Origin: a virus
Virus record (IMG/VR): IMGVR_UViG_3300043444_000221
Coordinates: 16,321 to 80,320 of that record
Length of the DNA stretch: 64,000 nucleotides
Reading direction: 5' to 3' (one strand)
Positions within the stretch are counted from its first letter, which is position 1. Each line of letters opens with the position of its first letter. This document shows positions 23,460 through 57,430 of this stretch, in pieces. The notes under the pieces are model-generated. The model was not told the origin of the DNA, did no database searches, and saw only the letters and a program-made list of their open reading frames with translations. The position numbers and the translations under genes are program-made.

Positions 23460-23747
23460 ATGGCAAGAGCTAAAGACGAATGGATAGAAAAAGCTAGATG
23501 CAAAAACTTTGATACTAATCTATTTTTTGATACATATGAGGAAGACCTAGAGATCCGTGAGGATGTTGATACGCTTTGCTCAATGTGTCCAGTTGCACGT
23601 CATTGCTTTGCTGTTGGAGTATCGCAAAAAGGCTGGGGTGTCTGGGGAGGAATCTATCTGGAAGATGGAGAGATCTCTCGTGAGTTTAATAGACACAAGA
23701 ATAAGGCCAAGTGGGCTGCAACCTGGAAGTATTTGACGGTAGATTAA
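23460..23747 (+). CDS. whiB: WhiB-family transcription factor
   Basis: W...A.C, LFF, C..CPV...C, GVWGG. Confidence 0.9.
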   Translation: MARAKDEWIEKARCKNFDTNLFFDTYEEDLEIREDVDTLCSMCPVARHCFAVGVSQKGWGVWGGIYLEDGEISREFNRHKNKAKWAATWKYLTVD

Positions 23748-23748
23748 A

Positions 23749-23991
23749 GTGTATACAGATTCAATGAAGACAGCATTTAGATCGCTGGCACATTATGCAC
23801 CAAAGGGATTTAAGGTAACCATTATAGACAATGACACCTTTATCACTGTAAAGGCAAATGAGCCAGATTTTATGAAACTACTTGACGAAGACAAGCGTCG
23901 TGCTGTAGAATATATGGTAAGGGTCAAGAAGGCCTTAGAAGATAATGGAGCTATCGTACTACTGGTACGAGAGGGTGGAAAGGACATATAG
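23749..23991 (+). CDS. Hypothetical protein
   Basis: Coupled ORF. Confidence 0.65.
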   Translation: MYTDSMKTAFRSLAHYAPKGFKVTIIDNDTFITVKANEPDFMKLLDEDKRRAVEYMVRVKKALEDNGAIVLLVREGGKDI

Positions 23992-24485
23992 TGCAAACTT
24001 TTTTGCCGTCCAAAGATTTTGATACTGCTGCTAACATGCTTGACTCAAAGCGATTGAACAAGCAGATTCTTGAAGCATATCAAATTCTCAAGGTGCTATC
24101 AAACAATGATCCAAAAGCAGCATGGCGTAATCATCCTGCAGTAAAGATGTGGCGTGGACATGAGCATGGGCTGTTTGTCTATGCACTTGCCATGGTTAAG
24201 GAAGCTAAGAGTCGTGGCATCAAAACAGATAAGAACATGGATAATCTGGTATCACTTCGTGTCATGCATCTAAAAAACTGGGGACATGGGATGCCAACAT
24301 GGTATCAAAATTCTGAAGAAATGCATAGGATTACCGTGACGCATCGTGCACGACTAAGTGTTAAAGATCCAATCTATTATGCACATTTCTTCATGTTCCG
24401 CAACCATGCTGACAATACACCATGCTGTGAAACCTGTCAGTACTATTGGCCAACACATGTATCAGATCGAAAGGTTGTAAAATGA
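23991..24485 (+). CDS. Pyrimidine-dimer DNA glycosylase family (MSMEG_6728-like)
   Basis: MQTFLP..DF...A..LD.KRL.KQ..E..QIL, W.NHPAVKMWRG. Confidence 0.85.
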   Translation: MQTFLPSKDFDTAANMLDSKRLNKQILEAYQILKVLSNNDPKAAWRNHPAVKMWRGHEHGLFVYALAMVKEAKSRGIKTDKNMDNLVSLRVMHLKNWGHGMPTWYQNSEEMHRITVTHRARLSVKDPIYYAHFFMFRNHADNTPCCETCQYYWPTHVSDRKVVK

Positions 24486-42563: not shown

Positions 42564-42574
42564 TACCCCCAAAT

Positions 42575-42650
42575 TTGTTAGGTTTAGATACCCCATTTTG
42601 TTAGGTTTTATCTTGAGTTGTTAGGTTTGATATCTCAATTTGTTAAGTTT
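42575..42650 (+). repeat. Iteron-like direct repeats
   Basis: TTGTTAGGTTT at 42575, 42598, 42618 and TTGTTAAGTTT at 42640. Confidence 0.8.
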
Positions 42651-42724
42651 ATACACATAGTTATCCACAGAGTTATACACAATTTGATGTCTGATTTTGA
42701 TAGTTATCCACAGGTTTATCCACA
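42649..42724 (+). promoter_or_regulatory. Five co-oriented DnaA boxes
   Basis: TTAT(C/A)CACA at 42649, 42661, 42673, 42704, 42716. Confidence 0.85.
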
Positions 42725-43073
42725 AGTAGATGTTACTGTCTTATTTCTCATATAGGGTTAGAGTGGATGGAAGTGGAGAGATATGGAGAATGGTACGCCT
42801 TTAATCGTAGGCCATCGTAATCCTACCACAAATTAGCCCTTTTGTCAAATCGGACATATCCAAATTGTTACCAAATTGTGACATTTATCATAGTTATCAA
42901 ATTGTTACATTTGACAAATTGGGATATGTGTGCTATAAGGGCATAAAAAAATATGTCCAAATTTGGGAAAAATTTATTGTTATCGTAATGTTATTTTATT
43001 AAACATTATCCCAATTTGGACAAACTTCAAGAAACAGAATGTGTTTTATATACTGTAGTTATTGTATATAGTA

Positions 43074-43283
43074 CTAGGGGATTTGGGTATCTTTCGTAAT
43101 ACCCTGGCCCTTGGCCTGGTCCCCTTCGGGGAACGGTAGCACGGTAAATGAGAAGATCTTCTGAAGCCCAGTATACTTAGTAAAGGCATGCCATACAAAT
43201 AGAGACATTTCATTGTGATCATCTCTCTGCTGTTGAGCAGCTTTAGGATATGACACTTGGAAGAAATGGTTTCTAGGACTCAT
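43074..43283 (-). CDS. Small hypothetical protein
   Basis: Leaderless ATG 6 nt after TATAAT on the - strand; shorter than the track ORF. Confidence 0.5.
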   Translation of the reverse strand: MSPRNHFFQVSYPKAAQQQRDDHNEMSLFVWHAFTKYTGLQKIFSFTVLPFPEGDQAKGQGITKDTQIP

Positions 43284-43415
43284 AATATTATTATACACCA
43301 ATTTGACAATTTGACAATGATCTGCTATGATCTGGGAAAATTTTTGATCCTTCGTAATCTGGGAATTTTTTAGGTCCTTCGTAAAGGAGCTATTTGGATC
43401 GACGGCGAATTTGGG

Positions 43416-43441
43416 TAAAAGAAAAGCCCCCGTAGGGGCTA
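43416..43441 (-). terminator. Terminator closing the - strand block
   Basis: Reverse complement AGCCCC-TACG-GGGGCT-TTTCTTTT. Confidence 0.75.
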
Positions 43442-43566
43442 ATCTCAAATAGGACAATCAGAATAGGGGAAGTATTCCTTTTCCTCGCAGGTGCAGAATC
43501 CAAACTCTTCTACCTGTGTAACGTGTGTCAAGTCTGCCAAATCAGACCAGTAATATACTTTATCCA

Positions 43567-46500
43567 TTATGCTCCTACCTTCCATTCCATAGTATCAAAT
43601 ATGGTATCCATTGTCAAGTGCAAATTGCAGTCACATTCTCCACCATTCATATTCTCCATGAATTCAAAATGAGATAAATTGTCTTCATATATCTTGGTTA
43701 CTAGTTCATCTACTGTATATGGTGTGCTCATGAATTTGCCATTACCCATTCTTCATCTACCTCGTCGTCATAGCAGCCACAGCATTCAACACAGATAATC
43801 TCATTATCCTTGCTGCAGTTTGGACACAGATATTGGTCCATTGTCATCTCAGGGTTTTCACAGAACTCACAGATGGTTGCTGCAAGTTGTTCAATAGTAT
43901 AATCTCTAATGTGGTCTGCCTTGAACATATGTTCCATACTCCTTGTCTGCCGTCCATTTTGCAATCTCTTCTGAATCCATATCAGCGATATCAATCATTA
44001 GATTATTAGTGAACATCCAGTCCCTTACCCATTCGTATAGGTGTTCAGTTCCATACTCTAGGGTAAAGGCAGGGGTATCAGTATTGAGAGCATCCCATAC
44101 GATATCCTGTGTACGAATATATAGTTCTTCATCTTGGTAGAACTGGTCAATGATGTCCCACACCCATAGCCACACAAGGCTAGGGAAATGGGTCTCATTT
44201 AGTTTAGTTAGTTTATCTAGAATCTCGTCTAGTTCTTGTCTTGGGGTTGTCATAGTATCCATTCTACTACTTGTCAAGGATTTCGTCAAGTGTTGTAAAG
44301 CCTGTGTCTTGTACCTCTACCCCAGCCAGCAGCAAATCAAATGTCTCATTGATGAATGCCTTTGCCTGGTCTGACTTAGCCTCCACTACCCCACTATCAA
44401 TTAGATAGGCAAGTGGTAGTCCAAGATCGTTATAGACAATAAAGTCTTCAAAGATCTCATCGTCACGATAGTTCAACCAAATGTCAGCAAGTATGCTGCA
44501 CTTATCTTGAAACTCTGTAGTTGATTGTGGTGAATCCATTGTTATCTCTTTCCTCTTGAGCAGACTCTGTCATTATCTCTAATCTGTGAAATGTGGTGCT
44601 AGGTCTCATTCGTGCTAGATAAATACCAACACGCTCAATGTCTAGTCTTAGGTCACAAATCATATTAGAAATCTTGACAGCGACTTTTTCTTCTTCTGTC
44701 ATTCCTCTATGTATCATTGTCACCTCACTCGTTCATTATAGCAAAAATATGGGGAGAGGGCAAGTAGTGAAAGTAGGAAATGTCTACTCACCCCCTCCCT
44801 GGTGGTACAGCCGTCAACCCCTTAACAGCTGTACTATCCTAGGAGCTAAGCTCAACTAGGAAGCTTTGTCATACCAGACCATGGGCTCTCCAGATGGATT
44901 AAGCTCACGTACATCTACAAGACTGTTTAGCCAATCAAGAATAGATTGTGGGCATGCCTTAGACTCTTCTAGGAATGCATCTACACCTGTCCAGAAATCA
45001 GTCCCATACTCATCTATAGGGAAGTCAGGAGCAATGGCCCTAGTCTCTGCTAGCGTAAGCTTTCTGATATCACCTTCATATGTACGTGAACCAAGATGGT
45101 CATTAATATAAAGATATACCTGCATGGTTAGTAGCTCGTCCCAAGTGGTACCCAGCTCTTCATCCCATTGCTCTGCATAGAAGATGTTAAGGTCATAGGC
45201 CTTGGTCTCTTCGTAGGTAAACTTACTTGACGATGTCTGCATTGTCTTCTCCATAAATCTGCTTGAGGTCTTCTACGGTATCGCAAGGAATGTCAATTGA
45301 ACCTTCTTCACACTCTTCGCAGTTAGGGTCATAGTCACCGTCTTCTGTGGTGTCATAGCAGTCACATTGGCGGTAGGTCCAAGTAGGAATCTCTGTCCAT
45401 TCGTCTTCCCATGGATTCTCAGTAATGTAGTAATGAATGCGATTTACAAAATGCCAACCTGCCACAATGTAAGTGCCCTCGTCACCATCTACTTCAGTCC
45501 AGATGTGCTTAGGGTCTTGAGCCTTGACAAAATCTACCTCTTCACCATAAGTTTCAAAATGAATAAGGCTCTCGTCAGGATACTTACTAATAGTATTTTT
45601 GATTGGCTTGAATGTTTCTTCCCACCCACCATAGGTATAAAACTTAGACATCTAGGGTTACCTTCTTTCCATACTCTCTGATTACGTCTTCGAACTTATC
45701 TCCCTCAAGTTCTCCAACTTCTTCCATAATAGCATCAAACTCACCCTGTGTCAAGTTCTTGGTATCTAATACATATAGGGGAAAGTTGCTCTGGTGCTCC
45801 CACCAGTCTCCATTAACATTAGCAATATAAACAGTCATTAGCAGTCTCCGTTACTAGGAATCTTGTCTTCTGGTACACCCATCATAGATAGGATAGCTTG
45901 GCTTCTTCCAATGATGCCCTCAAGGAAATCACCATATGGGTCATTGATATCCAAAGCCTCTCGTTCTGGAATCAGTTCAGTGATATCAGCAATAAGATAA
46001 TCAATAATCTCCTGATTACTCGCCATCTTCATCCTCCTCATCAGACTCAAACTCTGCTACCTCAATGCTGTGGACAATGCCTGTGTGCGACCAGTCCTCA
46101 TACTCCCAGCCTTGCTTTTCTGCTTCCTCAACGCTATCAGCTTCAACCTCATAGCAATACTCAACAGTTACAGTTACTTCATAAGAACCCATTTATTTAT
46201 CCTAACTTTCTCTTAGAAATGGAAGTCTACAGGAACAAGATACCACTTTTTGGAACCCTTGTCAAGTTCTTCCAGCATATATTTCGGGGTAGTGGTGTAG
46301 TTATCCAAATCATAGAAATATGAATCTTGATTCCAATAACCATTTAGCATAGAGGCAGCAGACCTAACATAGTATGCTGTCATATCAAATCTATCCTCAT
46401 CTGATAGATTGCCATTGTTTTCAATAAAGGTATCAACAAGACTACTAAACTTATCTAGTTCTAGTCTTTCTCTGATACGCCCCATTTCTTCGCTACGAGC

Positions 46501-46749
46501 AGATAGAGAGCCTTGAAGAGTTTCCATAAACTTATCAGGATTATCAGCAAGTGAAACCACATCGTTGTGATTATCTTGGTATTGATTATTAGGATTACTA
46601 TTCCAACGCCCACCACCAACGACATACCAATCAGACCAGCCACCTAGTCCCTCACTTTCGGAATACATAGATTCAAACTTGTCTTTTACTTTATTGAAAG
46701 CCTCTTCTGCAGAATCAGCCTTTATTGCTATTTGTTGTAATACGTGCAT
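43567..46749 (-). CDS. Operon of small acidic hypothetical proteins (43567, 43728, 43906, 44267, 44502, 44856, 45223, 45644, 45838, 46016..46192, 46213..46749)
   Basis: Overlapping start/stop ORFs behind the promoter at 46780-46808. Confidence 0.7.
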
Positions 46750-46985
46750 TTGGGGTTGCCTTTCTACTTTGATACCTCAATTTTACACGCTGCCACTGAC
46801 ATTGTCAAATTGGGAAAAGAATCAGCGTGTCGTAATTACTTTTATATAGTTATTTATATAAGCTCAGATCCAGAATTTGGGAAATTTGTTACACAAACGT
46901 AATACAAAATACTTGACTAATAGTATAAAGTGTGGTCGACCACATTGCGATCAGTTTGTCAAGCTCAACACGATCCCTGGAGGGA

Positions 46986-47013
46986 GGGCAGTTTTACGTG
47001 TTGCCCAGCACGT
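46986..47013 (-). ncRNA. Post-stop pseudoknot, copy 2
   Basis: ACGTG-CTGGGCAA-CACGT-AAAAC-TGCCC. Confidence 0.65.
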
Positions 47014-47017
47014 TTTA

Positions 47018-48031
47018 TTATGCGTTAGCCATTACGCCTTGCACAACTTTTAGCAGGCGATTCTTCTCTGCATTTATCATTGGGTCAAACCCACTTGCAC
47101 TTGCAAGAATTGATTCGTTAGAACCGCCACGAGCAGAACGATACCAATCCAAACGCTCAGTAAGTGCATTGAACGCACCCCAAGCAGTGCCAGCAATCAT
47201 GCCATTGTAAGTGCCAGTGTAAATGTCATTGATAACATCTACCTTGTTTTCCCACTTCTTGACAGCACCCTTAGTGTCCTTGTCAGGCTTAGGGTATGCA
47301 GACAGAATGATGTCATTGAACTGTTGTGCAGTTACTTCTTGCTGAATCATGGCGTGTGCCATCTTGTCGAATTCGTCCATGTATTTGTTAGCAAGACCAA
47401 GAGTCTCACGAGCAACCGCAATCTTACCCTCTGCAGTCTGAGTGTGACGAATCTTGAAACTTTGCTTAGGGCCTTTGCCACGAGAACCTAGAGCAAGGTT
47501 TAGAGTGTTAGCACATACAACACGAACAGGTGTGATAGACGCTTGAATAGCAATCGAACCGTCGTGTGATGTATTGATAAGAAGATAAGTCTTTACCTTA
47601 TCTGAAACGCCGTTAGGGTCAAGAACGGTTTCACGCTCAAGAGCAAGAGAACCGAAGACAACACGTCCGCCCTTGATAGAGCCAGCAGTCTCCCAACGTC
47701 CGCCACCGTCCAAGATGTTGTCACCGAATGAGAACAAATCTTCATTCTGCAAAACCTTGTAACGCTCACCAACAACGCCAAGAACGTCATTCTGTGAATT
47801 GTCAAATGGGTTAGTGCGAGTAACGAAGAAATAGTTCTTGTCACTTGCGAATGTGTCAGGAATCGAAACGTCCTCAAGACGAACATTCCAGTTGTCAAGG
47901 TGTGCCTTCTGCAACATTTCTGCAGTGGTTACTTCTTCAGTGAAGACCTCACCAAGACCATGCCAAGCAGGCTCACGAAGAGAAGCAAAAGCAGTCTCGC
48001 CGTTTGCACCTTGTTCTAGTAGATGTGCCAT
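47018..48031 (-). CDS. DUF932 family phage/plasmid-like protein
   Basis: AWHGLG, VG.RY...QN, ETAGS..GG, YLL...SHDGS, TPVRVVCANTL, GTAWG..NA..E..D. Confidence 0.85.
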   Translation of the reverse strand: MAHLLEQGANGETAFASLREPAWHGLGEVFTEEVTTAEMLQKAHLDNWNVRLEDVSIPDTFASDKNYFFVTRTNPFDNSQNDVLGVVGERYKVLQNEDLFSFGDNILDGGGRWETAGSIKGGRVVFGSLALERETVLDPNGVSDKVKTYLLINTSHDGSIAIQASITPVRVVCANTLNLALGSRGKGPKQSFKIRHTQTAEGKIAVARETLGLANKYMDEFDKMAHAMIQQEVTAQQFNDIILSAYPKPDKDTKGAVKKWENKVDVINDIYTGTYNGMIAGTAWGAFNALTERLDWYRSARGGSNESILASASGFDPMINAEKNRLLKVVQGVMANA

Positions 48032-48210
48032 GTGTGTATCCTTTCGTAGGGGTTTTTCTGATAAGACTATTATGGCAGATACCTCTGACAATGTCAAGTT
48101 ATATTGGGGAAAATGTTTGGGCGTGTCGTAACGTTTTCGTAACAAAGTTATCCACAAAGTTATCCACAGGGGGTCGACACATTTTCGATCAGATGTCAAA
48201 TATGGGGAAT

Positions 48211-48239
48211 GAGCAGTTTACATGGACGTGCTCAGGTCC
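48211..48239 (-). ncRNA. Post-stop pseudoknot, copy 3
   Basis: GGAC-CTGAGCAC-GTCC-ATGTAAAC-TGCTC. Confidence 0.65.
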
Positions 48240-48284
48240 CTTAGCATGCAGGCAGAAAGAAAGGATAAAAGCCTGCAGTACCTC

Positions 48285-49191
48285 TTACTCTACGTTAACC
48301 CATTTCATTGCGGTACGTAGAAGATTGTCATAGTCCCCAGACATAGACTCATTCATATACTGTTCGACCTCGTCAGCTGAGGCTCCAGCTTTTCGAAGGG
48401 CCTTAGATACAGCTCCCATGATAGCGAATGCATTACCGTCAGTGCCAGTAAGTTTTACAGTTACAGTCTCATATTTACTCATTAGATTATCTCCGTTAGG
48501 GTTTCGTTGTATTCTACATCATCAGGGTTAGAGAAGTCAAATCCCGAATCCTTATAGTCTTCCTCATCCTCGTATCCTTGAAGGACAAAGAACTTAGCCA
48601 TTGCTTCATCTTCACTAGTGGCCATAACGCTGTATGATTCACCTGTTAGGATTGTGTATTCCTGCTTTTCCATTACGCCATTACCTCTTCCTTTGAGAAC
48701 TCATTCAAGTATAGTTCAGGGGTAGGGAGTTTGTCAAGCGAGAACACAACCTTTTTACCACCATACTGTGAGATAAATAGTCTAGTTTGAAAATCAATTG
48801 TATAGACACCCTCGCACATCAAATCATCTTCAATAAAGTCAATCTGATTAGATAGGGGCACACGACCAGTTGAATAGGTTACCACCTTAAGAATGTCTGA
48901 ACCTGTATTTCTAGTTAGACTAGGATACATTACAGCAAACTTATCGCTGTTATCCATTGTCATCATTCCGTCAGGGGTAACGAATGGCTTGTACATCTCT
49001 TCCAACTCTGATTCAGTAGCGAAGTAGCATTTGAATAGTGCCTTCTCCAACTGTTCTACAACATTGTAGCCAGATAGGAATGATAGAATGTTTAGGCCCT
49101 GACCATCTGGATAGTGGTCCCATTGTCCATACTGTGCAACAACAGTCTGGCCGTTTGAATCAATTACCTGTGTAATACCTCTTGTACCCAT
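48285..49191 (-). CDS. Three small hypothetical genes (48285..48482, 48482..48673, 48673..49191)
   Basis: G.DGNAF.IMG...SGDYD.LL; MGTR...QY..WD.YP.GQG; AAGGA RBS. Confidence 0.75.
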
Positions 49192-49384
49192 TTCTTTCCT
49201 TCTTTCTCTTGATACCTACAATTATAGTATGAGGGTCTGACATTTGTCAAGTTATTCCTGGCGTGTCGTAAGCTTTTTCTTAAATGTTATCAATTTGTTA
49301 CATTTGGTCGACCCCATTTTTCACCAGATGTCAAGCTTGGTTCTGATCTTTTCCGAAGATCATTTTGACATTGGTGAAAGTGGT

Positions 49385-49412
49385 GAGCAGTTTCAACACT
49401 TGCTCAGGTGTT
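49385..49412 (-). ncRNA. Post-stop pseudoknot, copy 4
   Basis: AACAC-CTGAGCAA-GTGTT-GAAAC-TGCTC. Confidence 0.65.
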
Positions 49413-49417
49413 TCCCG

Positions 49418-49597
49418 TTACTTCCCAACAAGGAAGAAACTTGATGCTGACTTTCGCTTCTGCTTTACGGGAATGTTCTTGGTCTGATTGGTAGCACCAA
49501 TAAACTTTCCATCTGCCGTGCGAACAACAGCCTTGTAGATTTCACCAGACTTGGTGTTCCACTTCTCAGTTGCGATTACAATCTTCTTTCGTGCCAT
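49418..49597 (-). CDS. Small basic protein (not in track)
   Basis: MARKKIVIATEKWNTKSGEIYKAVVRTADGKFIGATNQT...; AAAGGA RBS. Confidence 0.7.
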   Translation of the reverse strand: MARKKIVIATEKWNTKSGEIYKAVVRTADGKFIGATNQTKNIPVKQKRKSASSFFLVGK

Positions 49598-49632
49598 TTC
49601 TTTTTCCTTTTCGTTGTTGGGTTTATTAGGGT

Positions 49633-49666
49633 GAGCAGTTTAGCCTTGACTTACTCAGGTCAGGGT
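49633..49666 (-). ncRNA. Post-stop pseudoknot, copy 5
   Basis: CCTGAC-CTGAGTAA-GTCAAGG-CTAAAC-TGCTC. Confidence 0.6.
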
Positions 49667-49671
49667 TCTCG

Positions 49672-50118
49672 TTAGAGAAGTTCCATTACGGAGTTGTAAG
49701 TGGAAGCATTTACTTCCTCTTGCTGTGTCATCTTTAGAACCTTTAGGTTCTTCTTGAGCAAGTCCAACTTGGTGGTGTAGTCCCTACCAAAGTAAGTCTT
49801 CTCATTTGGTCGCTGTGGTTCTTCAGGTCGCTTAGGGAAACCAAGTGCCTCAGTATCAAACTCAACAGACACGCCATTGTAGCGGTAGTTGCCTGTTACA
49901 CGAACAAGTGAGCCGTTCTCAGTTCCAATGTTGCTTGGGTCAGATAGTGCCTTGATAGCGTGAGCAATAACATCTTTCTCATACTGCTTTACATCAAGTT
50001 CATACTGCTTGCGAAGTCCAGAGTAGTTCTCAATGTCCTGCTCTACCTTTGCGATTTGTGCCTCAACCTCTGCGATTAGTGAAGCGGTTGGGATTTTGAC
50101 GGATAGCGATTTTGCCAT
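49672..50118 (-). CDS. Hypothetical protein
   Basis: Own promoter and RBS. Confidence 0.75.
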   Translation of the reverse strand: MAKSLSVKIPTASLIAEVEAQIAKVEQDIENYSGLRKQYELDVKQYEKDVIAHAIKALSDPSNIGTENGSLVRVTGNYRYNGVSVEFDTEALGFPKRPEEPQRPNEKTYFGRDYTTKLDLLKKNLKVLKMTQQEEVNASTYNSVMELL

Positions 50119-50189
50119 TTTTTCTTCCTTCTTTCTTTTGGGTTGTATCTATTATGCCATTGGGGTCTGACATTTTACACCTTGCGGTG

Positions 50190-50215
50190 GGGTAGTTTAG
50201 AGTGATACCCAGCAC
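50190..50215 (-). ncRNA. Post-stop pseudoknot, copy 6
   Basis: GTG-CTGGGTAT-CAC-TCTAAAC-TACCC. Confidence 0.55.
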
Positions 50216-50222
50216 ATTGTCA

Positions 50223-50375
50223 TTACGCCTTGTAAGTAGTCCAGCGAGGCTGTCCATTTACATTGAGGCGAACACGCACCGAGCCAGATGCGTTAGGCAC
50301 GATTTCCTCAATCACGCCTGTAACCTTGCTCTTGAGAGTAGTGAAAGTGTCACCAATCTTGTAAGTTGCGGTCAT
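50223..50375 (-). CDS. Small beta-barrel-type protein
   Basis: MTATYKIGDTFTT.KSKVTGVI.EI; GGAAG RBS. Confidence 0.65.
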   Translation of the reverse strand: MTATYKIGDTFTTLKSKVTGVIEEIVPNASGSVRVRLNVNGQPRWTTYKA

Positions 50376-50676
50376 TTTGCTTCCTTTCCATTTTGTCTTC
50401 ATACCAACTTTTGTTGATAATACTATTGTAGTGGATACCTCTGACATTTGTCAAGTCTATTTGATAACATTTCGGTAACAACTATTTACTTTTTGTCTGC
50501 TGATTTCCAACTGATACTATTATGGCATAGCCTACTGACAAAAGCAAATCCGACACGCCGTAAAATCTGGGAAATTTATAACGAAATCATAACGACACGC
50601 CGTAATTTGACAAATCACAAAAAATGTGTCGACCACAGATCGTGCCAGTTGTCAAGCTGACACGCCGTGGTTTTAT

Positions 50677-51393
50677 TTATTTCTTAGTTGCACTGAACAG
50701 AATGTCATTGCGATTAAATACACATTGCGAACAGGCAACACATGCACTACCCTTTTCACTAATTAGTTTAATCTTCTTAGCATTTTCGGGGCATGGAATT
50801 GCAGCCTTCTCTTGAATGTTTGCAAAGTCTAACTTACCTTCTGCAAAAGTCTTAGCAAGGTATGCAAGTTTTACATCATGCTTCTTCTTGAGTTGAATAC
50901 CTAGTGAGCGGTTTGCACTATCAGTACTAAAATAAAGTGATAGGTTAGTAATTCCCATTAGTGGTTCAACAGCGAATTCTGAACGGGTATAAGCCCAGAA
51001 TTGAGTATCTGCATGATTAAGAATTACATCCTTCCATGCCAATACATAAGTCTCATTAAAGAAATCACCATCCCAGTGGATACGGAATAGTTTTTCTGCA
51101 TTACGCTTTTCACAGTCCTTCTTGAATGAAACGATCATCTCATCCAATAGGTTATACATTGTTAGATAATCAGCGTCTTTGAGTTGTTCCCAATTGGATA
51201 GCAATACATTCTTTACGCCTTTATAGACTTTTTCGAGTTTTCCTGCATAACAGACGCTCTCACATACAGTGGTCGCACCAGGGCACGAGTAAGCCTTTCC
51301 ACTAGGTAATCCAAAAGTGTTTGCGATTGTTGGGGTTTTTCCATTTGGGGAGACTGCATTAGTGACTTTCCTATCTTTGCTACGGGTTAGCAT
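50677..51393 (-). CDS. Gp88-like Cys-cluster phage protein
   Basis: CPGAT..C...CYA, RIHWDGDF, W.YTR, CPE...C..C..C. Confidence 0.7.
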   Translation of the reverse strand: MLTRSKDRKVTNAVSPNGKTPTIANTFGLPSGKAYSCPGATTVCESVCYAGKLEKVYKGVKNVLLSNWEQLKDADYLTMYNLLDEMIVSFKKDCEKRNAEKLFRIHWDGDFFNETYVLAWKDVILNHADTQFWAYTRSEFAVEPLMGITNLSLYFSTDSANRSLGIQLKKKHDVKLAYLAKTFAEGKLDFANIQEKAAIPCPENAKKIKLISEKGSACVACSQCVFNRNDILFSATKK

Positions 51394-51423
51394 AGTTGTC
51401 CTTTCTTTCTTTAAACTATTTTA

Positions 51424-54400
51424 TCAGTAATCTTCATCTATGTCAAGCCATGCGTCAAGGTGGTGAGCCTCAATAATTGCATAGGCAGGTGCCTCAAGGC
51501 TGCCACGCCATGATACGCCTTCGGGCAGGGGAATCATACGGGAGCCTTCATCTTCATTGTAAGCGTTAATAGCTTCAATACATACAGGTACCATAGATAG
51601 CGGTACAGGTGGATAGTGGTTGCCTCTAAGGTGCATACCAATTGCATCTTCTAGTGTTAGATTAGGGAATAGGTCTGAATCAGCCAATTCCATTGCCATG
51701 TTGCTTCCCATTAGTTTCCTTCTTTCATTTGTTCAATAATAGCATGGTGGATAGCACTTTGTCTAGTCCTTTGACGGCGTGTCCTTTTATCAAGGTGAGT
51801 GCCACTAGCATTAGACTTTCTAATCTCTCGCATACCCTCAGCATAGGCAGGGTTAGCGGTTGGCTTATACTTATTAGTCCTATCTTTCTTCATACCCTAA
51901 TGCTAGCACAATTTGGGGGAAGTGTCAAGCCCATCTTAATTAAGATACGTAAATGTTACCAAAATGTTACATTTGTCGGCACCTGTGGATAACTCTGTGG
52001 ATAAGTACAGAGCATCCCAGGCGATCCGCTTACAGTTTGTTTTTTAGTTTGTTTATTTCGTTAGCTTGCATCACGTTAAGAGTTACAGACATTGCAAACA
52101 GTACAGAAAGAGTTAGCATCATTTATTTTCCTCCACTCTTTCCGTCACGAGAGAACCATCTAGTGTGCATCTTTCCACTTGGCTCCATTAGATTATAAGT
52201 TGCGAACTCTTTCGCATCTCCAACATCAACACACTTCTGAAAAGTCTCTACTGCAGAGAGTGCATCTGAAAAATTATGTGATGACATTAGTTTTCCGTCA
52301 TATGAAATAGTTAGTTGGTACATTACTCTTCACCTCCGATTTCTGCGAATACTGCGTCAATAAACTTCTGGTAGTTGAAATTAGGATTGTCTGCCTCAAA
52401 CATTTCAGCAAACTCATCAGCAATTTCTGACAAGACAAGAAAGTCAATTTCATCTACATAGTTGTTTAGGATTTGTGCGGTTGCTACATAGTCTTTACGG
52501 GTCATCATTTTATTTTCTATCCTTTTCGTTTGTTTGTATTATTAGTTTAGTGTATTGGTCTGACATTTACAAGCATTGACTATCAGCGTGTCGCCAAGCT
52601 TCTCAACACTTGCGAGGGTATTGCATGAATCACAGATAAAAATTTCCATGTTAGTTAGTCCTAACTGCGATAGTGCGATACTTGTAACCAATTCCATAGT
52701 TTGGACGGATAGTTACAAGATACGCCTCTGCGTCTGAGTAGAAAACATCATCACGCTTTTCTGCGTATTCAATAGTGCCCTCAAGAGTGCGAGAGCGGTA
52801 GTAGGTTCCCTTTAGGGCTTCTTCGATTGTATAGACATTTGCTGACATTAGTTGTCACCTTTCTTTAGTAGTTTAATTATACAACAGGGGTCTGACATTT
52901 ACATCATTGAGTAAGTGTCTTGGTGAGCAACACACTCACCAATTTCACCATTTAGGTGATAGTGGGTATCTAAGCCCATTTCAATTTCTTTTCCGTTATC
53001 AAAAGTGATACGGACAGCGTGGGCATTGTGCCCGTGAATCTTAGTTACAACACCACTAGCAATTGGCTTAGTGTAGAACATCTTACGGGCTAGAAAAGAA
53101 CCATTAGGCTTTTCTGAACCTTCAATTTTCTTGCTACCTGCACGATTGTAGATAGCGATTGTTGAACCTAGTTCAATAGTGCGAAACTTTTTCATTTTTA
53201 GTTCTCCTTTCAAGAGACTTTCTTTAACTTTCTAGGATAAATCCTAGCATAGGGGTCTGACATTTTGCAACTCACAAAACGGACATTTGCCACATTTGTG
53301 ATTGTGATTTAGGTCTCATTTATTCGCTAGGCTCACCCGTTTTTCGGTTTATTTGCTAGGCTCATTTTGACCTAAATCTCTCTATTTATTTATAGGATAA
53401 GACTAGCAGACATATCTCAAAAAGTCAAGGCGACACGCCGTGTTTCTTATAACATTCTTATAACGACACGCCCGACTGCGTCGACCAGATCCAGGAGCTT
53501 TTGTCAAGTCCTGTTCTGGCGTGTCTTAGAATGGAGGCTTGTTGTCCTCTTCGCCTTGGCGGTATCCAACAGACTTACCAATTCGGTAAGCAACATAGAC
53601 GAACACAATGTCAAGCAATAGGTTGAAGCCGTTATAGAAAATCATTTGTTATCCTTTCTTTGTTATTAGTATAGACTAGACTAGGTATTCTGTCAAGTCT
53701 TCACCTAGATACTCTTCAGCGTCTAGGATAGGCATTAGCCCGTCATACTCGTGACAAGCAGGGCATACATAAGCGTAGGTTACGCCGTAGCAGTATACAC
53801 AGATTCTAAGGTCTGAATCAATCTTTCTAGTTTCGTTCATTTTGAACTTCCTTTCTTTTACTAAGATAAACCTATCACAGGGGTACGACATTGTCAAGCT
53901 TTTTTATGGCGTGTCGTAGTTTTAATTATAACAATTTGATAACGGGTCGACAGATTTTGATCACTTTGTCAAGCTTTCAAATCTGCGTGTTGCGTTTAGA
54001 TTTTGGCTTTACCAACCAAAGTACCTGAAATAGAAAGTGCGTCACACGCAACTTTTACTGCAATACCAGCAGGGAGTTTTGCAGGGTACTCATTTAAGAA
54101 TTGAGCAACTGCACCCTTGCTAGGGAGAGAGATTACAGAGACATTACCATTGAAGGTTTCTAGTTTTACTTTATACATTAGTTTTCCTTTCATTAGCCGA
54201 AATAAACGGCACCTTTTACATTCTGATGATTAACACATACATTACCACGAGGGATAGGTGTATGACACTTGAAGCATAGCATTTGCATTGGAGCATTTGT
54301 TACTATTGCTAATTCTAAATCTAGTTTTTCTGAGGTAGTAGCCTCATCAAGGGATACCCAACCAGCACCCTGTTCATTCATTCTAAAAATTTCTAGTGAC

Positions 54401-55117
54401 ATTTTTATGTCCTTTCTTTAACTTCTAATAAGACTATCCTATCAGAGGGGTCTGACAAATAAGGGCTTTATTTGCTTAGGCTCACTGTGATACTAGTCAC
54501 ATTTATTTGCTAAGGCTCATTTCCTTATTTATCCTTATTTAATTTTGATACGAGTATCCTAACATAGAAAAGCCAAAAAGTCAAGGGACAAAACGGACAT
54601 TCTTATGTGTTTTAGGTCACATTTTGGTCGACACGGATCGCAGCTTTTGTCAACTGCGACACGCCCTTTTTTTACATTTTTCTTAGCATCTCATTGAAGT
54701 CATCTAGTGCTTGCTTGTATAGTTCGGGGTACTGTTCAGCAATACCCTTTAGACGCTCATCACTAGCCTTCATTTCAGCATAGGTACCACCCCAATGCTC
54801 AGAGTGATTAGCACTAATTTCTTTTAGCATTTCATCATAGGTCATTATTATTCACCTACCTTTGGGCAGTAGGTTACATTTCTGCTACTGTGGAATGTTG
54901 CTCCACCTTCTAGCACTTTGTGTTCAAGAACAATCTCGTGTTCCCAACCCCTACCTGCTATGGCAGAGTTAGTTACACGCTCTCCACATTCGGAGCAAGT
55001 TCCAAACCATAGGCGGTTATCCTTGCGGTAACCATCTTCTGGGTTGATTACCTTGAAATTGAAACCAATTCCGTTCTCACGGATTTCTTTGAAGTTTTCT
55101 TTAGTGATTACTAGCAT
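51424..55117 (-). CDS. Series of short, separately promoted hypothetical genes (51424, 51711, 52123, 52323, 52651, 52899, 53676, 53996, 54193, 54848 and others)
   Basis: Each ORF or pair has an AAAGGA-type RBS and an upstream promoter. Confidence 0.7.
54486..54501. promoter_or_regulatory. CRP/GlxR-type box
   Basis: Perfect TGTGA-TACTAG-TCACA; 1-mismatch copies at 53303, 54606, 55203. Confidence 0.65.
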
Positions 55118-55365
55118 TTCTAGTTATCCTTTCTTTTTATTACTATCTTTTCTTTATGTATTAAGATTAGCAGACAGGTCTGACAAAGTCAAGTCTATTT
55201 GGTGTGATTTATGTAACAATTTGATAACGGGGTAGGGGTGCATCCACACTATATTTTGTTACCTATTTGTTATAAAACATGTATCGTACACTTATTAAAA
55301 ATATTCAGATTTTCTCCAAATCCAAAATTTAAAATTTTTCAGATTTTGCCAGGTATAATAAACAT

Positions 55366-55494
55366 ATGGAAATTAAACGTGATGGAGACACTCCAGTTAA
55401 TGATAGCTGGACTATGAAAATTTTTTCAGATTCTTGCTGCAACGGATGTTCTTGCAAGTCGTCTGATGATCATAAAAAAGAAGACCAAGCCTAA
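55366..55494 (+). CDS. Small Cys-rich peptide (not in track)
   Basis: ...SCCNGCSCKS...; leaderless after TATAAT. Confidence 0.5.
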   Translation: MEIKRDGDTPVNDSWTMKIFSDSCCNGCSCKSSDDHKKEDQA

Positions 55495-55524
55495 ATAGCC
55501 TGGTCTCTTTATTTGAGCGGTATA

Positions 55525-55731
55525 TTAACGATTAGTATTAATATAACCATGCTCTACAAGCAAATCAAATAGCATGCCATTAACATACAGTAGTTGAGGT
55601 CTTTGCTGAGAAAGAGCCTGTTCAACTTGATCGCTTGGAGCATTTTGCTGAATAGCCATTTGACGATTCATATTGTCAATAGCATCTGTCATGAGCTGTA
55701 CAACTTCATCACGTAGCATATCTGTCTCCAT
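55525..55731 (-). CDS. Hypothetical protein
   Basis: 68-aa ORF. Confidence 0.6.
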   Translation of the reverse strand: METDMLRDEVVQLMTDAIDNMNRQMAIQQNAPSDQVEQALSQQRPQLLYVNGMLFDLLVEHGYINTNR

Positions 55732-55823
55732 TTCTACTAGTAGTTTATAAATGATATCACAATTTGGAAGTTAGTGCAATTTGGGACGGTACATAATCAG
55801 CGTAGCTGATCTCAAAATAAGAC

Positions 55824-56033
55824 TTACCAATTACCTACAGGACATTTCGCTTGAAGTAACGTAGTCTTTAAATGCATAAAGCATCCACACTTAGCACATC
55901 TAGCTGACTTAGGTCGAAAGAACTCACATGTCTTGCATATGTCCAAACGTTTCTCTATAAGGTCTTTATCTGAGCGTGGTTTATTAGGGTCAAATAGATC
56001 AGTAAATTTGACATCCCCTGGATTTTCTGCCAT
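55824..56033 (-). CDS. Small Cys-rich protein
   Basis: R..IC..C, C.KCGCFM..K..L..A.CP.G.W. Confidence 0.7.
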   Translation of the reverse strand: MAENPGDVKFTDLFDPNKPRSDKDLIEKRLDICKTCEFFRPKSARCAKCGCFMHLKTTLLQAKCPVGNW

Positions 56034-56072
56034 AATGGTCTATTTTATCATAAAACATGCTATAATTTCAGT

Positions 56073-56765
56073 ATGACAATTCCTAACAGTTCCGTACGCC
56101 AGCTAGCAACTAGCAATGGTGTCACAATTTCTCTAACTTCTGGACCAGACGTTTATCAGCCACTTGCAGAGACAACTCCTGCATGGCCAATTATGAAAAA
56201 TCTAATTGATGCTGCTCCTTCACAAGATGGCCTTGTATTTGGAGACTTTGGAACTGGTACTGGTCAATTTGCTATTTTTGCTAAGTGGACATTCCCTGGA
56301 ATGACTGTTAAGGCATACGACAACGATCCTGCTGTACAGAAGTACGTAGAAGAAAATCTTGTCACACATGCAGAGCTTGCAGCAGATGCTGTAGAACTCA
56401 ATATCATGGATGTTGCAGATATCGATCCAAACACAGAATTCGACTTTATCATCTCAACACCACCATACTATGCAGATGTTATCAAGACACTTCCAAGCAT
56501 TTCACACCCACACATGGAAGATCCAGAGTCTGCAGTATTTGGTGGTTTCAAGGGATTGGAAGTCCAAGCTGTATTTTTGGATAAGGCTGCACAAACTCTT
56601 AAGTCAGGTGGAGCAATTCTAGTTGTTCACGCACGTACTGCTAAGGATGATATTGCAGATATGCTAACACAGCGTGGATTTACAAATCTTTCATACCACC
56701 AGGATGCAAATCCTTCAGAACTTATGCCAATTGTAGATGCTGGTTTCACAGTAGCATACAAGTAA
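56073..56765 (+). CDS. HemK/PrmC-like SAM methyltransferase
   Basis: DFGTGTG..AI, FD.IISTPPY (NPPY-like), DP..A.FGG..GL, L..GG. Confidence 0.7.
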   Translation: MTIPNSSVRQLATSNGVTISLTSGPDVYQPLAETTPAWPIMKNLIDAAPSQDGLVFGDFGTGTGQFAIFAKWTFPGMTVKAYDNDPAVQKYVEENLVTHAELAADAVELNIMDVADIDPNTEFDFIISTPPYYADVIKTLPSISHPHMEDPESAVFGGFKGLEVQAVFLDKAAQTLKSGGAILVVHARTAKDDIADMLTQRGFTNLSYHQDANPSELMPIVDAGFTVAYK

Positions 56766-56937
56766 CCCATAAGTTAGCAATTGCTCACAAGTTATCTTGT
56801 GGGCTTTTTGCTTATTTGGGGATGGTATCTCTATATCACGCCGAACTTGTCCGCTGGACTTAAAAACTATTTTATCGCTTCGCTTTTATCCACAGATTGT
56901 GAATAAGTGTTAAAAAATAAAGTATAATTATACTATC

Positions 56938-57234
56938 ATGACAACCCTTCAAATAACAGAGATGATTATTGCGATTATGGTTTCTATTGGAACCTTTATT
57001 GGATTGTCAGCTGCAGGTGTCCGCTGGCTTGTCAAACATTACTTCAATGATATAAAGCATGAGCTAAAGCCAAATGGTGGATCAAGCTTAAAAGATCAAG
57101 TAAATCGAATGGAAAAGCAGCATCAGGAATTTAAAAACAGACTAGATGAAGCTGACTTGATGCGTAGAGATATGAATAAAAAAGTAGACAAGATGTATGA
57201 TCTACTTTTGGACTATATTGCTAATAAGAAGTAA
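56938..57234 (+). CDS. Membrane protein with coiled coil
   Basis: TM segment, ELKPNGGSSLKDQVNR. Confidence 0.7.
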   Translation: MTTLQITEMIIAIMVSIGTFIGLSAAGVRWLVKHYFNDIKHELKPNGGSSLKDQVNRMEKQHQEFKNRLDEADLMRRDMNKKVDKMYDLLLDYIANKK

Positions 57235-57320
57235 TATATAATATATATAATATATATAAATATAAAGATATAAGATATATTCTACTTAGAGATATTATTT
57301 AATATTTAATATATATAATA
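57232..57320. repeat. Extremely AT-rich low-complexity tract
   Basis: TAATATATA repeats, non-coding. Confidence 0.75.
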
Positions 57321-57430
57321 GTCTACCACAGAGTTCTATTCTTTGAGGCCAAAATTGATAAAATCTTTATAACATTTTTATAACTCTTTTTCAAAAAGTC
57401 CTTTTTGTACAATTATGATATAATTTATAT

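Follow-up and report, generated by a model that had tools for sequence, protein, structure and literature searches.

Small-gene cassettes of an uncultured, probably freshwater actinobacteriophage contain sites resembling those of host regulators and may couple early expression to host cell state

The 64,000-nucleotide (nt) stretch of viral DNA analysed here (the window) comprises bases 16321–80320 of the 80,320-bp IMG/VR virus record IMGVR_UViG_3300043444_000221 (the whole record, G000, is the window plus 16 kb upstream) and contains a minus-strand block of about 36 small open reading frames (ORFs; 43445–56033), nearly all of which have a strong Shine–Dalgarno (SD) sequence of the AAAGGA type. 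The spacers of this block are assembled again and again from one set of short motifs, which resemble sites of the actinobacterial regulators PafBC, WhiA, DnaA, MtrA and Crp. A slight preference is given to the reading that early cassettes built from such host-regulator sites control the early genes via the host regulators themselves, and a coupling of phage start-up to the condition of the host cell is probable. As part of this explanation, the block would be an early module of the host-takeover type, with about a dozen stacked transcription cassettes.

Enrichment and Order of the Motifs

The spacers counted were the 14 of at least 40 nt in the minus-strand block (2815 nt in total, 38.6% GC), and the backgrounds were dinucleotide shuffles of the whole window and, separately, of these 14 spacers (500 shuffles, AT-matched). 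An initial annotation, made from the sequence alone, had named a lack of enrichment over an AT-matched background as the outcome that would speak against it; every motif was enriched, and the observation stands because none of the 500 spacer-only shuffles equalled any observed count. The octamer GACACGCC occurs 12 times in the window (shuffle mean 0.41) and 10 times in the spacers (0.03), the promoter pattern TGTCRG-N10-YANNNT 14 times (2.6; 12 copies on the minus strand in the block) and 10 times (0.03), the canonical DnaA box TTATCCACA nine times (0.99) and four times (0.03), and the direct repeat GTTAY-N6-GTTAY 13 times (0.52) and nine times (0.02), respectively. The composite element TTGACA-N15/16-GTCGAC, referred to below as the class-1 element, has seven copies in the window, and the spacers hold seven versus 0.00 in the spacer-only shuffles. 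The enrichment of palindromes of the CRP type (TGTGA-N6-TCACA, at most one mismatch) is marginal in the window (10 versus 3.85), and the spacers contain four (0.13).

The class-1 element opens seven of the 14 spacers, as their first or second item, and all seven GTCGAC sites of the window lie within it, on the minus strand. In the sense direction, six of these seven spacers continue with DnaA pairs and/or a GTWAY-N6-GTWAY repeat, GACACGCC, a TGTCAG-N10-TAnnnT promoter, an SD and a small ORF; the exception is the spacer 54671–54403, which contains no DnaA box and no GTWAY repeat and has CRP-type boxes and a GAGCCTA repeat in their place. The box of the 47.0-kb spacer carries one mismatch (GACACGCT). 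All parts listed in the initial annotation were found at their places, and the order that it had given was kept in these six class-1 spacers, with two amendments. GACACGCC does follow the class-1 element as had been described, but it is also found before it, in the reverse orientation (GGCGTGTC) in three spacers and as a forward box in a fourth; DnaA boxes, described as a part of the cassettes, belong to them in two spacers only (48.15 and 52.0 kb), the remaining cluster at 42.65–42.72 kb being separate.

The Phage and Its Relatives

The record has a GC content of 40% and a CheckV completeness of 73%; the full genome is roughly 110 kb long, complete relatives being 103–117 kb. A megablast search with the region against 50,697 phage records gave no match. 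About 600 IMG/VR contigs encode a relative of the block protein GP88 (50677–51393, minus strand), and the 80 loci kept out of these contigs form the set of relatives used in the comparisons below. At 99.4% identity, L001 represents this same phage, L003 is colinear with the window at about 85–89% identity, L002 and L004–L008 are close relatives, and L009–L080 have GP88 proteins of 64–80% identity; the boxes persist even among the latter.

Pfam and PHROGs searches with the 36 ORFs of the block recognised only GP88, DUF932 (47018–48031, minus strand), DUF6171 (55824–56033, minus strand) and a sub-threshold DUF7129, and no DNA-binding domain. Homologues of GP88, DUF932 and DUF6171 are found almost exclusively in actinobacteriophages; since the phage encodes GP88, DUF932 and a WhiB-like (Wbl) protein, its host would be a low-GC actinobacterium, probably a freshwater one. 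The only sequencing run with part of the stretch (X1, probably DNA, share 0.25) carries the label freshwater metagenome, which was not taken as evidence of habitat; it yielded short contigs and no usable transcript starts or ends.

Promoters with a TGTC Element

The intergenic sense-strand pattern TGTC(A/G)(G/T)-N10-(T/C)AnnnT has 12–13 copies within 46780–55192. In the PafBC consensus tGTCgg(N10)tA(N3)T, PafB reads the GTC triplet at −28 to −23 (the '−26 element'), and there is no −35 (PMC8635444). The geometry of the phage promoters is identical, TGTCAG being located at −28 to −23, ten bp ahead of TAnnnT. Six of the roughly 12 minus-strand promoters of the window have TTGACA/T two nt upstream (55164–55192, 53869–53897, 50425–50454, 49221–49250, 48069–48097 and 46780–46808), and those at 54436–54457, 53241–53262, 52876–52897, 50519–50540, 50151–50172 and, possibly, 52544–52565 are without a −35. 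Across the 80 loci, a slightly relaxed pattern was found 903 times in the sense and 123 times in the antisense orientation, with the consensus aaAATGTCaGa..c...TG.TA.AaT; TTGACA is absent from 736 of the 790 unique promoters. The relative L002 carries a version of mycobacterial appearance, TTGTCGGTGG.

A related pattern was found in the cultured Streptomyces phage NootNoot (NC_042009, BE cluster), where seven early TGTCCY-N10-TAGACT promoters were counted versus 0.26 expected, with none in antisense and one to three in the other 34 kb. This shared TGTC element fits a conserved host reader such as PafBC and, equally, a shared phage factor. The chances that PafBC itself is the host factor acting at the phage promoters are judged to be about even, the similarity being one of geometry.

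The block also contains canonical promoters of the sigma-A type on the minus strand, TTGACT-N17-TAGGAT at 54556–54584 and TTGACT-N17-TAGTCT at 53400–53428. Between each of them and the next −35-less TGTCAG promoter lies a pair of GAGCCTA(A)GCRAATAAA repeats (54502–54518/54467–54483 and 53348–53363/53319–53334). The pair in the first of these spacers flanks a perfect CRP-type palindrome; each copy starts with ATG or GTG and could encode a mini-ORF of 5–10 codons (e.g., MSLSK). Many promoters also have a conserved box, (A)TTTTCCC(C)A(A/G)A, located 10–30 nt upstream of the −35 or TGTC; it is present at 48102–48112, 46875–46884, 46808–46817 and 42961–42970, and in the alignment of the DUF932 spacer it reads aaTTATTTTtCCCCAGA.

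The WhiA-Type Box and the Phage Wbl Protein

Twelve exact copies of GACACGCC, in both orientations, lie within 6.5 kb (48120–54665), ten of them in spacers, and there is none elsewhere in the 80-kb record. The 8-bp WhiA/WhiB2 motif of Mycobacterium tuberculosis was derived from chromatin immunoprecipitation sequencing (ChIP-seq) and in vitro IDAP-seq, and the earlier set of Minch gave CGACACGCCGn (PMC13473873). GACACGCC is identical to the 8-bp motif letter for letter, the extended form CGACACGCC(G) matches as well, and the extended phage consensus over 218 + 114 unique copies reads tacGGCGTGTCG / taCGACACGCC.

WhiA sites are located upstream of the −35 on either strand, and WhiB bridges WhiA to region 4 of sigma-A, as in the S. 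venezuelae sepX complex (PMC10243135). In the relatives, the reverse-oriented box stands 3 nt ahead of TTGACA in 43 cases (2–4 nt in 55), and the forward-oriented box begins 25 or 36 nt ahead of TGTC. Three of the four complete relatives contain 7–15 copies of GACACGCC, almost all in one block of about 4.5–10 kb; the octamer is absent from the fourth, and a control with the reversed pattern gave 0. The M. tuberculosis WhiA peak 42 bp upstream of the damage-inducible promoter recA P1 (PMC13473873) provides a host precedent for a WhiA box combined with a promoter of the damage type. WhiA is likely to be the host factor at these boxes.

The initial annotation had also reported that the phage encodes WhiB, and a Wbl gene with four cysteines and a GVWGG motif is indeed present on the plus strand at 23460–23747. 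Of the solved relatives, WhiB7 and WhiB1 are nearest to its product (E 3e-7 to 6e-6), and the match to S. venezuelae WhiB has an E value of only 0.007; a partnership of the phage Wbl with WhiA is therefore put forward as a possibility, and host WhiB2 could form the bridge in its place. The plus strand also has a gene for a pyrimidine-dimer DNA glycosylase (Pyr_excise, E 3e-20) at 23991–24485, about 240 nt downstream of the Wbl gene and separated from it by one small ORF. A scan of genome contigs with the phage Wbl gave a single phage-like contig of 55 kb (L081, CAYQOJ010000004.1), which encodes a Wbl protein 67% identical to that of the phage. It belongs to a metagenome-assembled genome (MAG) labelled uncultured Methylococcus, and it is probably of actinophage origin and was binned by mistake with a gammaproteobacterium.

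CRP-Type, Direct-Repeat and DnaA Boxes and Their Phasing

The four CRP-type palindromes of the spacers (55203–55218, 54606–54621, 54486–54501, which is perfect, and 53303–53318) have centres about 53.5, 64.5, 64.5 and 76.5 bp upstream of the inferred transcription starts. The relatives contain 215 CRP-type sites with centres that peak 25, 36, 46–48 and 57 nt ahead of TGTC, i.e., in steps of about 11 bp (10–11.5), and the positions are like those of class-I activator sites. A factor of the Crp type at these palindromes is a plausible candidate, given somewhat less than an even chance.

The direct repeats of the form GTTACC-N5-GTTAC / GTnAYC-N5-GTnAY fit the Streptomyces MtrA site GtnAcC-n5-GTnAcn (PMC13189361), and in the relatives they peak 33, 43 and 53–54 nt ahead of TGTC. 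The proposal that an MtrA-type factor binds them is rather doubtful. The second unit of GTTAT-N6-GTTAT at 53924–53943, 53445–53464 and 57365–57384 (minus strand) runs into AAT, AAG or AAA, which yields the extended −10-like sequences TGTTATAAT, TGTTATAAG and TGTTATAAA; the repeat may overlap a weak promoter.

DnaA boxes are mostly arranged as co-oriented pairs 12 bp apart, with 61 such pairs in the relatives, and often follow directly on a class-1 element, 17 of the 113 elements having them at +29 to +31. The second pair of the block, two copies of TTATCCACA in a 12-bp phase (51984–52004, minus strand), is followed by GTTAC-N6-GTTAC at 51955–51970 and a canonical TTGACA-N17-TAGCAT promoter at 51900–51928. 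DnaA is the fairly probable host factor here, if slightly less so than WhiA at its own boxes. The assignments to DnaA, MtrA, WhiA and PafBC made in the initial annotation gain support from the exact GACACGCC and TTATCCACA, from the PafBC spacing and from the form of the MtrA site. The boxes recur across the relatives, the sequence of the direct repeat changing between lineages.

Over the 80 loci, the WhiA, CRP-type and direct-repeat boxes stand at fixed distances, phased at about 10.5–11 bp, from some 800 promoters. When the spacer upstream of DUF932 is aligned across 15 phages, the boxes stand out as conserved islands amid diverged sequence, single WhiA and DnaA boxes being kept in some lineages and replaced in others.

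These distances also bear on the second role offered by the initial annotation, that of a sponge. As a decoy of this kind, the multiplying phage genome would titrate host WhiA, DnaA, PafBC and Crp from host promoters and oriC and so halt division and replication, the control of phage genes being secondary. With 12 WhiA and nine DnaA boxes per genome, 50–100 phage copies would exceed the approximately 150 WhiA ChIP peaks of M. tuberculosis (PMC13473873); class-1 elements, with a WhiA box and a −35 and no −10, could hold RNA polymerase (RNAP) and WhiA unproductively, and the WhiB of phage TM4 has been reported as an antagonist of host WhiB2. Against this, the boxes are tied to promoters by fixed gaps and helical phase, and there are few per spacer, with no packed arrays save in the origin-like stretch at the end of the block. 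Titration and regulation are, moreover, compatible, and a sponge effect may be a by-product. Since the helical phasing is fixed and no matching DNA-binding domain was found in this phage or in four complete relatives, a sensor is favoured over a sponge, and the latter, taken as the principal role, is very improbable.

The Class-1 Element

All seven class-1 elements are on the minus strand. Copy 1 (TTGACA-N15-GTCGAC, 54627–54653) is preceded by GGCGTGTC at 54658–54665 and has a hairpin TCGCAG/CTGCGA around TTGACA; copy 2 (53946–53972), the site of a crossover described below, is followed by GTTATCAAATTGTTAT at 53928–53943 and GACACGCC at 53908–53915. Copy 3 (53480–53507) is flanked by GACACGCC at 53518–53525 and by two GGCGTGTC boxes (53465–53472 and 53432–53439), which bracket a GTTAT-N6-GTTAT repeat at 53449–53464. 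Copy 4 (50628–50655) has GGCGTGTC three nt upstream (50659–50666), further GGCGTGTC boxes at 50594–50601 and 50552–50559 and repeats at 50578–50593 and 50464–50479. Copy 5 (49307–49334) is followed by a repeat at 49286–49301 and GACACGCC at 49260–49267, and copy 6 (48173–48199) immediately by a pair of DnaA boxes with a 12-bp spacing (48148–48156 and 48160–48168), GTTAC-N6-GTTAC at 48128–48143 and GACACGCC at 48120–48127; in copy 7 (46935–46962), the palindrome is extended to TGTGGTCGACCACA.

The centre of the GC palindrome is 18–19 bp past TTGACA. Within one genome, all class-1 copies share one palindrome, and the palindrome differs by lineage: it is GGTCGACC in this phage, GGCTCGCC/GGCGAGCC in L002, L003 and L006, GGTCGCCCC in L004, L005 and L008, GAGCGCTC in L009–L012, GGGCCC in L025 and GTCGATCC in L021, and a real GC hairpin takes its place in L013 and L045–L078. 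The tetranucleotides CCGG, CGCG and GCGC are absent from the 80-kb genome (about 127 expected each), TCGA is depleted five-fold (53 versus 289), and sixteen GC-containing palindromic hexamers are missing. The avoided sets differ between lineages, L009 having GCGC and no GGCC and L025 the reverse, which looks like a strong, lineage-specific avoidance of restriction sites. The GC box obeys the avoided tetranucleotides of its own genome, and this suggests a need for structure or palindromy over one fixed protein site.

The 40 nt around the class-1 TTGACA fold better than shuffled sequences (mean z −1.72, 43% below −2), the mean z of control TTGACA sequences from real promoters or elsewhere being −0.2 to −0.26, and the stems differ in sequence among the copies. 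Perfect stems of at least five contiguous pairs were found in 33% of the elements versus 8–13% of the controls, so that the TTGACA hairpin is enriched and not universal. The non-Watson–Crick pairs inside the stems comprise 11 G·T and 0 A·C, which indicates that the structure is read on the sense strand, i.e., in a read-through RNA. With a lineage-specific palindrome, no −10 and a sense-strand hairpin, the element is no fixed-sequence site of a host regulator, although the initial annotation had read the region as an array of host-regulator sites.

Several other roles were considered for the class-1 element. A sigma-A promoter was ruled out, the −10 position being occupied by the GC palindrome in all seven copies and in 113 copies of the relatives, and an antisense promoter was ruled out by eye. 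TTGACA-N17-CGAC resembles promoters of extracytoplasmic function (ECF) sigma factors with a −10 of CGAC/CGTC; this role was rejected because the box varies among close relatives and no sigma gene was found. An intrinsic terminator was rejected too: the hairpin is there, but no U-tract or T-run follows it, and true, L-shaped terminators exist elsewhere in the block: the only two canonical hairpins with a U-tract are at 55481–55507, after the second gene, and at 43425–43440, at the end of the block. The idea that the methyltransferase encoded nearby (56073–56765) recognises the GC box found no support.

The initial annotation had also suggested that shared motifs could drive the shuffling of cassettes, and one clean case was found. 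The element at position 7520 of L002 is chimeric, with parts of two window cassettes meeting at its GC box: its left half and the upstream gene correspond to the cassette of the 53972 element and its right half to the sequence downstream of the 53507 element, and the cassette order is altered accordingly. On these grounds, the class-1 element is read as a unit boundary, combining a putative RNA 3'-end or processing hairpin with a WhiA-marked −35, and also, by analogy with the early stem-loop cassettes of T4-type phages, as a candidate homology patch for cassette exchange.

The same data could be taken to mean that the repeats are chiefly mobile promoter–terminator cassettes and RNA elements that recombination and gene conversion maintain, as in phage T4, with no transcription-factor input beyond sigma-A. 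The cassette order differs even among close relatives (L002 and L008), one junction falls inside a class-1 element, alignment break points are enriched in spacers and near class-1 elements, if only about two-fold, and the single GC box per genome suggests concerted evolution; the hairpin signals given above point the same way. Recombination, however, explains the spread of the boxes and not why they equal the consensus of host regulators, why they remain islands while the flanking spacer diverges, or why they keep a helical phase with the promoters, and this explanation is the least probable of those weighed here, marginally below the sponge.

GATC is scarce at 44456–55468 (11 kb), with 12 sites versus about 33 at the average density of the window. 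All but one of the 12 are in spacers, and six fall between the TTGACA and the GC box of a class-1 element; pairing with GTCG, the end of the WhiA box, accounts for part of this, yet GATC is commoner there than the pairing needs.

Host Regulators or Phage-Encoded Readers

In the reading of host control, a long spacer has four parts from 5' to 3'. First come RNA elements that would end the preceding unit: an AAACTGC motif and the class-1 element, whose sense-strand hairpin has TTGACA in the loop and in most cases stands between a WhiA box and the lineage-specific GC palindrome. Phased boxes of the activator type come next (a CRP-type palindrome, an MtrA-type direct repeat, a WhiA box and sometimes DnaA pairs), then a promoter with TGTCAG at −28 to −23, ten bp before TAnnnT, and finally a strong SD and the small ORF. 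Host sigma-A RNAP would fire the promoters with a TTGACA −35 immediately, and the −35-less promoters would require the 'sigma adaptation' exerted by host PafBC, for which single-stranded DNA is the trigger. Individual cassettes would be tuned by MtrA, DnaA, a protein of the Crp/GlxR type and WhiA, all from the host, WhiA acting together with host WhiB2 or with the phage Wbl, and the output of the early genes would track the DNA-damage, cell-cycle and nutritional state of the host.

Several observations weigh against this scheme. The phage element is TGTCAG and that of PafBC TGTCGG, half of the window promoters have a good −35 unlike canonical PafBC promoters, and the extended −10 (TGn) present in most of them might suffice by itself. 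DnaA boxes are without a fixed phase to promoters, the sequence of the direct repeats drifts by lineage (e.g., two copies of GTTAACCTAAT in L025), and homologous promoters may have or lack a WhiA box. It is not clear that the phage Wbl belongs to the WhiB2 class, the one that partners WhiA, and the molecular action proposed for the class-1 element is that of a candidate boundary only. Finally, the TGTC element is common to Streptomyces BE phages that share GP88/DUF932-type early genes, so that a conserved phage factor would be an equally simple reader.

The boxes might accordingly be read by unrecognised phage proteins, either small early or virion-delivered ones, such as a sigma-appropriation factor at TGTCAG, the likeness to host sites being coincidence or mimicry. 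Phage factors that re-programme sigma are known, AsiA and MotA of phage T4 among them. The T4 case is also alluded to in the PafBC literature (PMC8635444). A new DNA-binding fold could hide among the 33 of 36 block ORFs that received no family assignment, and the lineage-specific GC palindrome and direct repeats are as would be expected for co-evolving phage factors. On the other hand, exact matches of 8–10 bp to WhiA and of 9 bp to DnaA sites are unlikely by chance, the boxes stay invariant while proteins diverge to 64% identity, as for deeply conserved ligands, and early promoters must act before any phage protein exists. Homologues with the relevant domains are also absent: no WYL or Sigma70_r2 domain was found in the record or in five relatives of 95–100% completeness (G001–G005, L025 among them), and no DnaA_C, HTH_WhiA, Trans_reg_C or HTH_Crp_2 domain in the record or in four relatives of 99–100% completeness. 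Phage-encoded readers are therefore regarded as unlikely, if less so than the sponge, and control by host regulators remains the preferred reading.

Host control can be put in a stronger, joint form, in which dozens of early promoters in a whole group of actinophages (freshwater ones and perhaps those of Streptomyces) would take their 'go' signal from host PafBC, a WYL regulator activated by single-stranded DNA and a sensor of the DNA-damage and phage-alarm type. WhiA (plus Wbl), Crp, MtrA and DnaA at phased sites would read the cell-cycle and damage state of the host, and the class-1 element would be a new boundary or insulator that docks RNAP and WhiA without opening the DNA. That all of these parts should hold together is tentative, and clearly less probable than the general reading.

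Comparison with Known Systems

Dense arrays of tiny genes, all or nearly all with their own strong host-type promoter and SD and separate from the remainder of the genome, are likewise present in two other phages: Bacillus phage SPO1, whose terminal redundancy contains a host-takeover module, and T5, in its pre-early region. Their promoters are plain sigma-A/sigma-70 promoters, however, without arrays of host-regulator sites. DUF932 is present at two places in records of Streptomyces BE phages, the only hint that the present phage may have a terminal redundancy. The stoperators of cluster A mycobacteriophages (sites of L5 gp71) are also numerous short asymmetric sites in early-arm spacers, and the L5 site contains CTTGACA. 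Those sites, unlike the present ones, are bound by a phage repressor and co-oriented with transcription; here, both orientations occur, no repressor gene was recognised and the phage looks lytic.

Streptomyces phage NootNoot shares a DUF932 homologue and 100–250-bp spacers composed of hairpin, box, promoter and SD, and an ORF of similar size at the position of GP88 is a candidate counterpart of that gene. It differs in having GACACGCC once in 50 kb, no DnaA or CRP boxes of the kind described here, and a boundary made of a GC hairpin and GTCGGGCCCGGACAA. At 1–10 kb of its record (L082), in a minus-strand block of small genes at the left end, each spacer contains a GC hairpin of the GGGCCCTTCGGGGCCC type, a GTCGGGCCCGGACAA box and a TGTCCY-N10-TAGACT promoter, a parallel cassette with different sequences.

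PafBC-dependent (RecA-NDp) promoters (PMC8635444; PMC11804915) have the GTC element at −28 to −23, ten bp before TAnnnT, and most copies of the phage group similarly are without a −35. The phage promoters differ in having TGTCAG, in the six copies with a −35 and in standing, a dozen of them, before small uncharacterised ORFs instead of repair genes, and their dependence on PafBC is putative. WhiA/WhiB-dependent sigma-A promoters (PMC10243135; PMC13473873) share the identical 8-bp GACACGCC, located upstream of the −35 on either strand, and a Wbl protein, in this case encoded by the phage; in contrast to the host promoters, the sites are on phage DNA, their spacing is far more rigid and the Wbl is nearer to WhiB7/WhiB1. 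The promoter(early) stem-loop (PeSL) cassettes of T4-type phages (PMC2839356; PMC4122927) also flank small variable ORFs with a stem-loop and an early promoter and form recombination junctions, but they belong to an unrelated family, host and sequence; the class-1 stem-loop, in turn, holds TTGACA, has a lineage-specific GC palindrome after it in place of a U-tract terminator and belongs to cassettes with extra regulator boxes. The likeness of the class-1 element to PeSLs is one of proposed function only and not of membership.

No account of a PafBC-type element or a WhiA box in a phage promoter was found in the full-text papers searched. The common view is that phage early regions run on plain host-sigma promoters or on phage factors; in the present group, each genome has about a dozen cassettes composed of sites like those of host master regulators of damage, division, replication and cyclic AMP signalling, and the relatives together have some 800 such promoters. 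If the host proteins do bind, abundant lake phages would time their takeover by host physiology, and PafBC 'sigma adaptation' and WhiA/Wbl co-activation would have viral clients, which would give a purpose to many phage Wbl proteins. The compact modular promoters would also be useful as parts and as probes for actinobacterial regulation, and the idea is testable at the bench, because cultured Streptomyces BE phages share the TGTC element; isolated phage–host pairs of 'Ca. Nanopelagicales' are available as well (PMC10202952).

Ends of the Block and Further Elements

The initial annotation had treated the whole of 42575–57384 as one cassette array, and this did not hold at either end. The upper end (56.07–57.4 kb) contains plus-strand genes, among them the methyltransferase mentioned above. 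The lower end (42564–43445), where the gene blocks of both strands converge, is a repeat-rich non-coding stretch with five co-oriented DnaA-type boxes (42649–42724), three to four CCCAAATTTGTTAGGTTT iterons, GTTAY repeats and ATCTGGGAA(A/T)TTTT...CCTTCGTA repeats. A TTGACA-N17-TAGGAT promoter at 42820–42848 (minus strand) would transcribe across the DnaA boxes, and the stretch looks like an origin rather than a cassette.

An Rfam search over 42–58 kb, at the gathering threshold and with E up to 1, gave nothing save a chance match to a snoRNA. A hairpin- or pseudoknot-like motif, CTGAGCA...AAACTGCTC, is located directly 3' of four stop codons on the minus strand (49633–49658, 49385–49407, 48211–48235 and 46986–47008) and is the opening item of three class-1 spacers. 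The relatives keep this motif as (C)CTGAGCA-N-TAAACTGC, and its probable role is at mRNA 3' ends or in mRNA processing.

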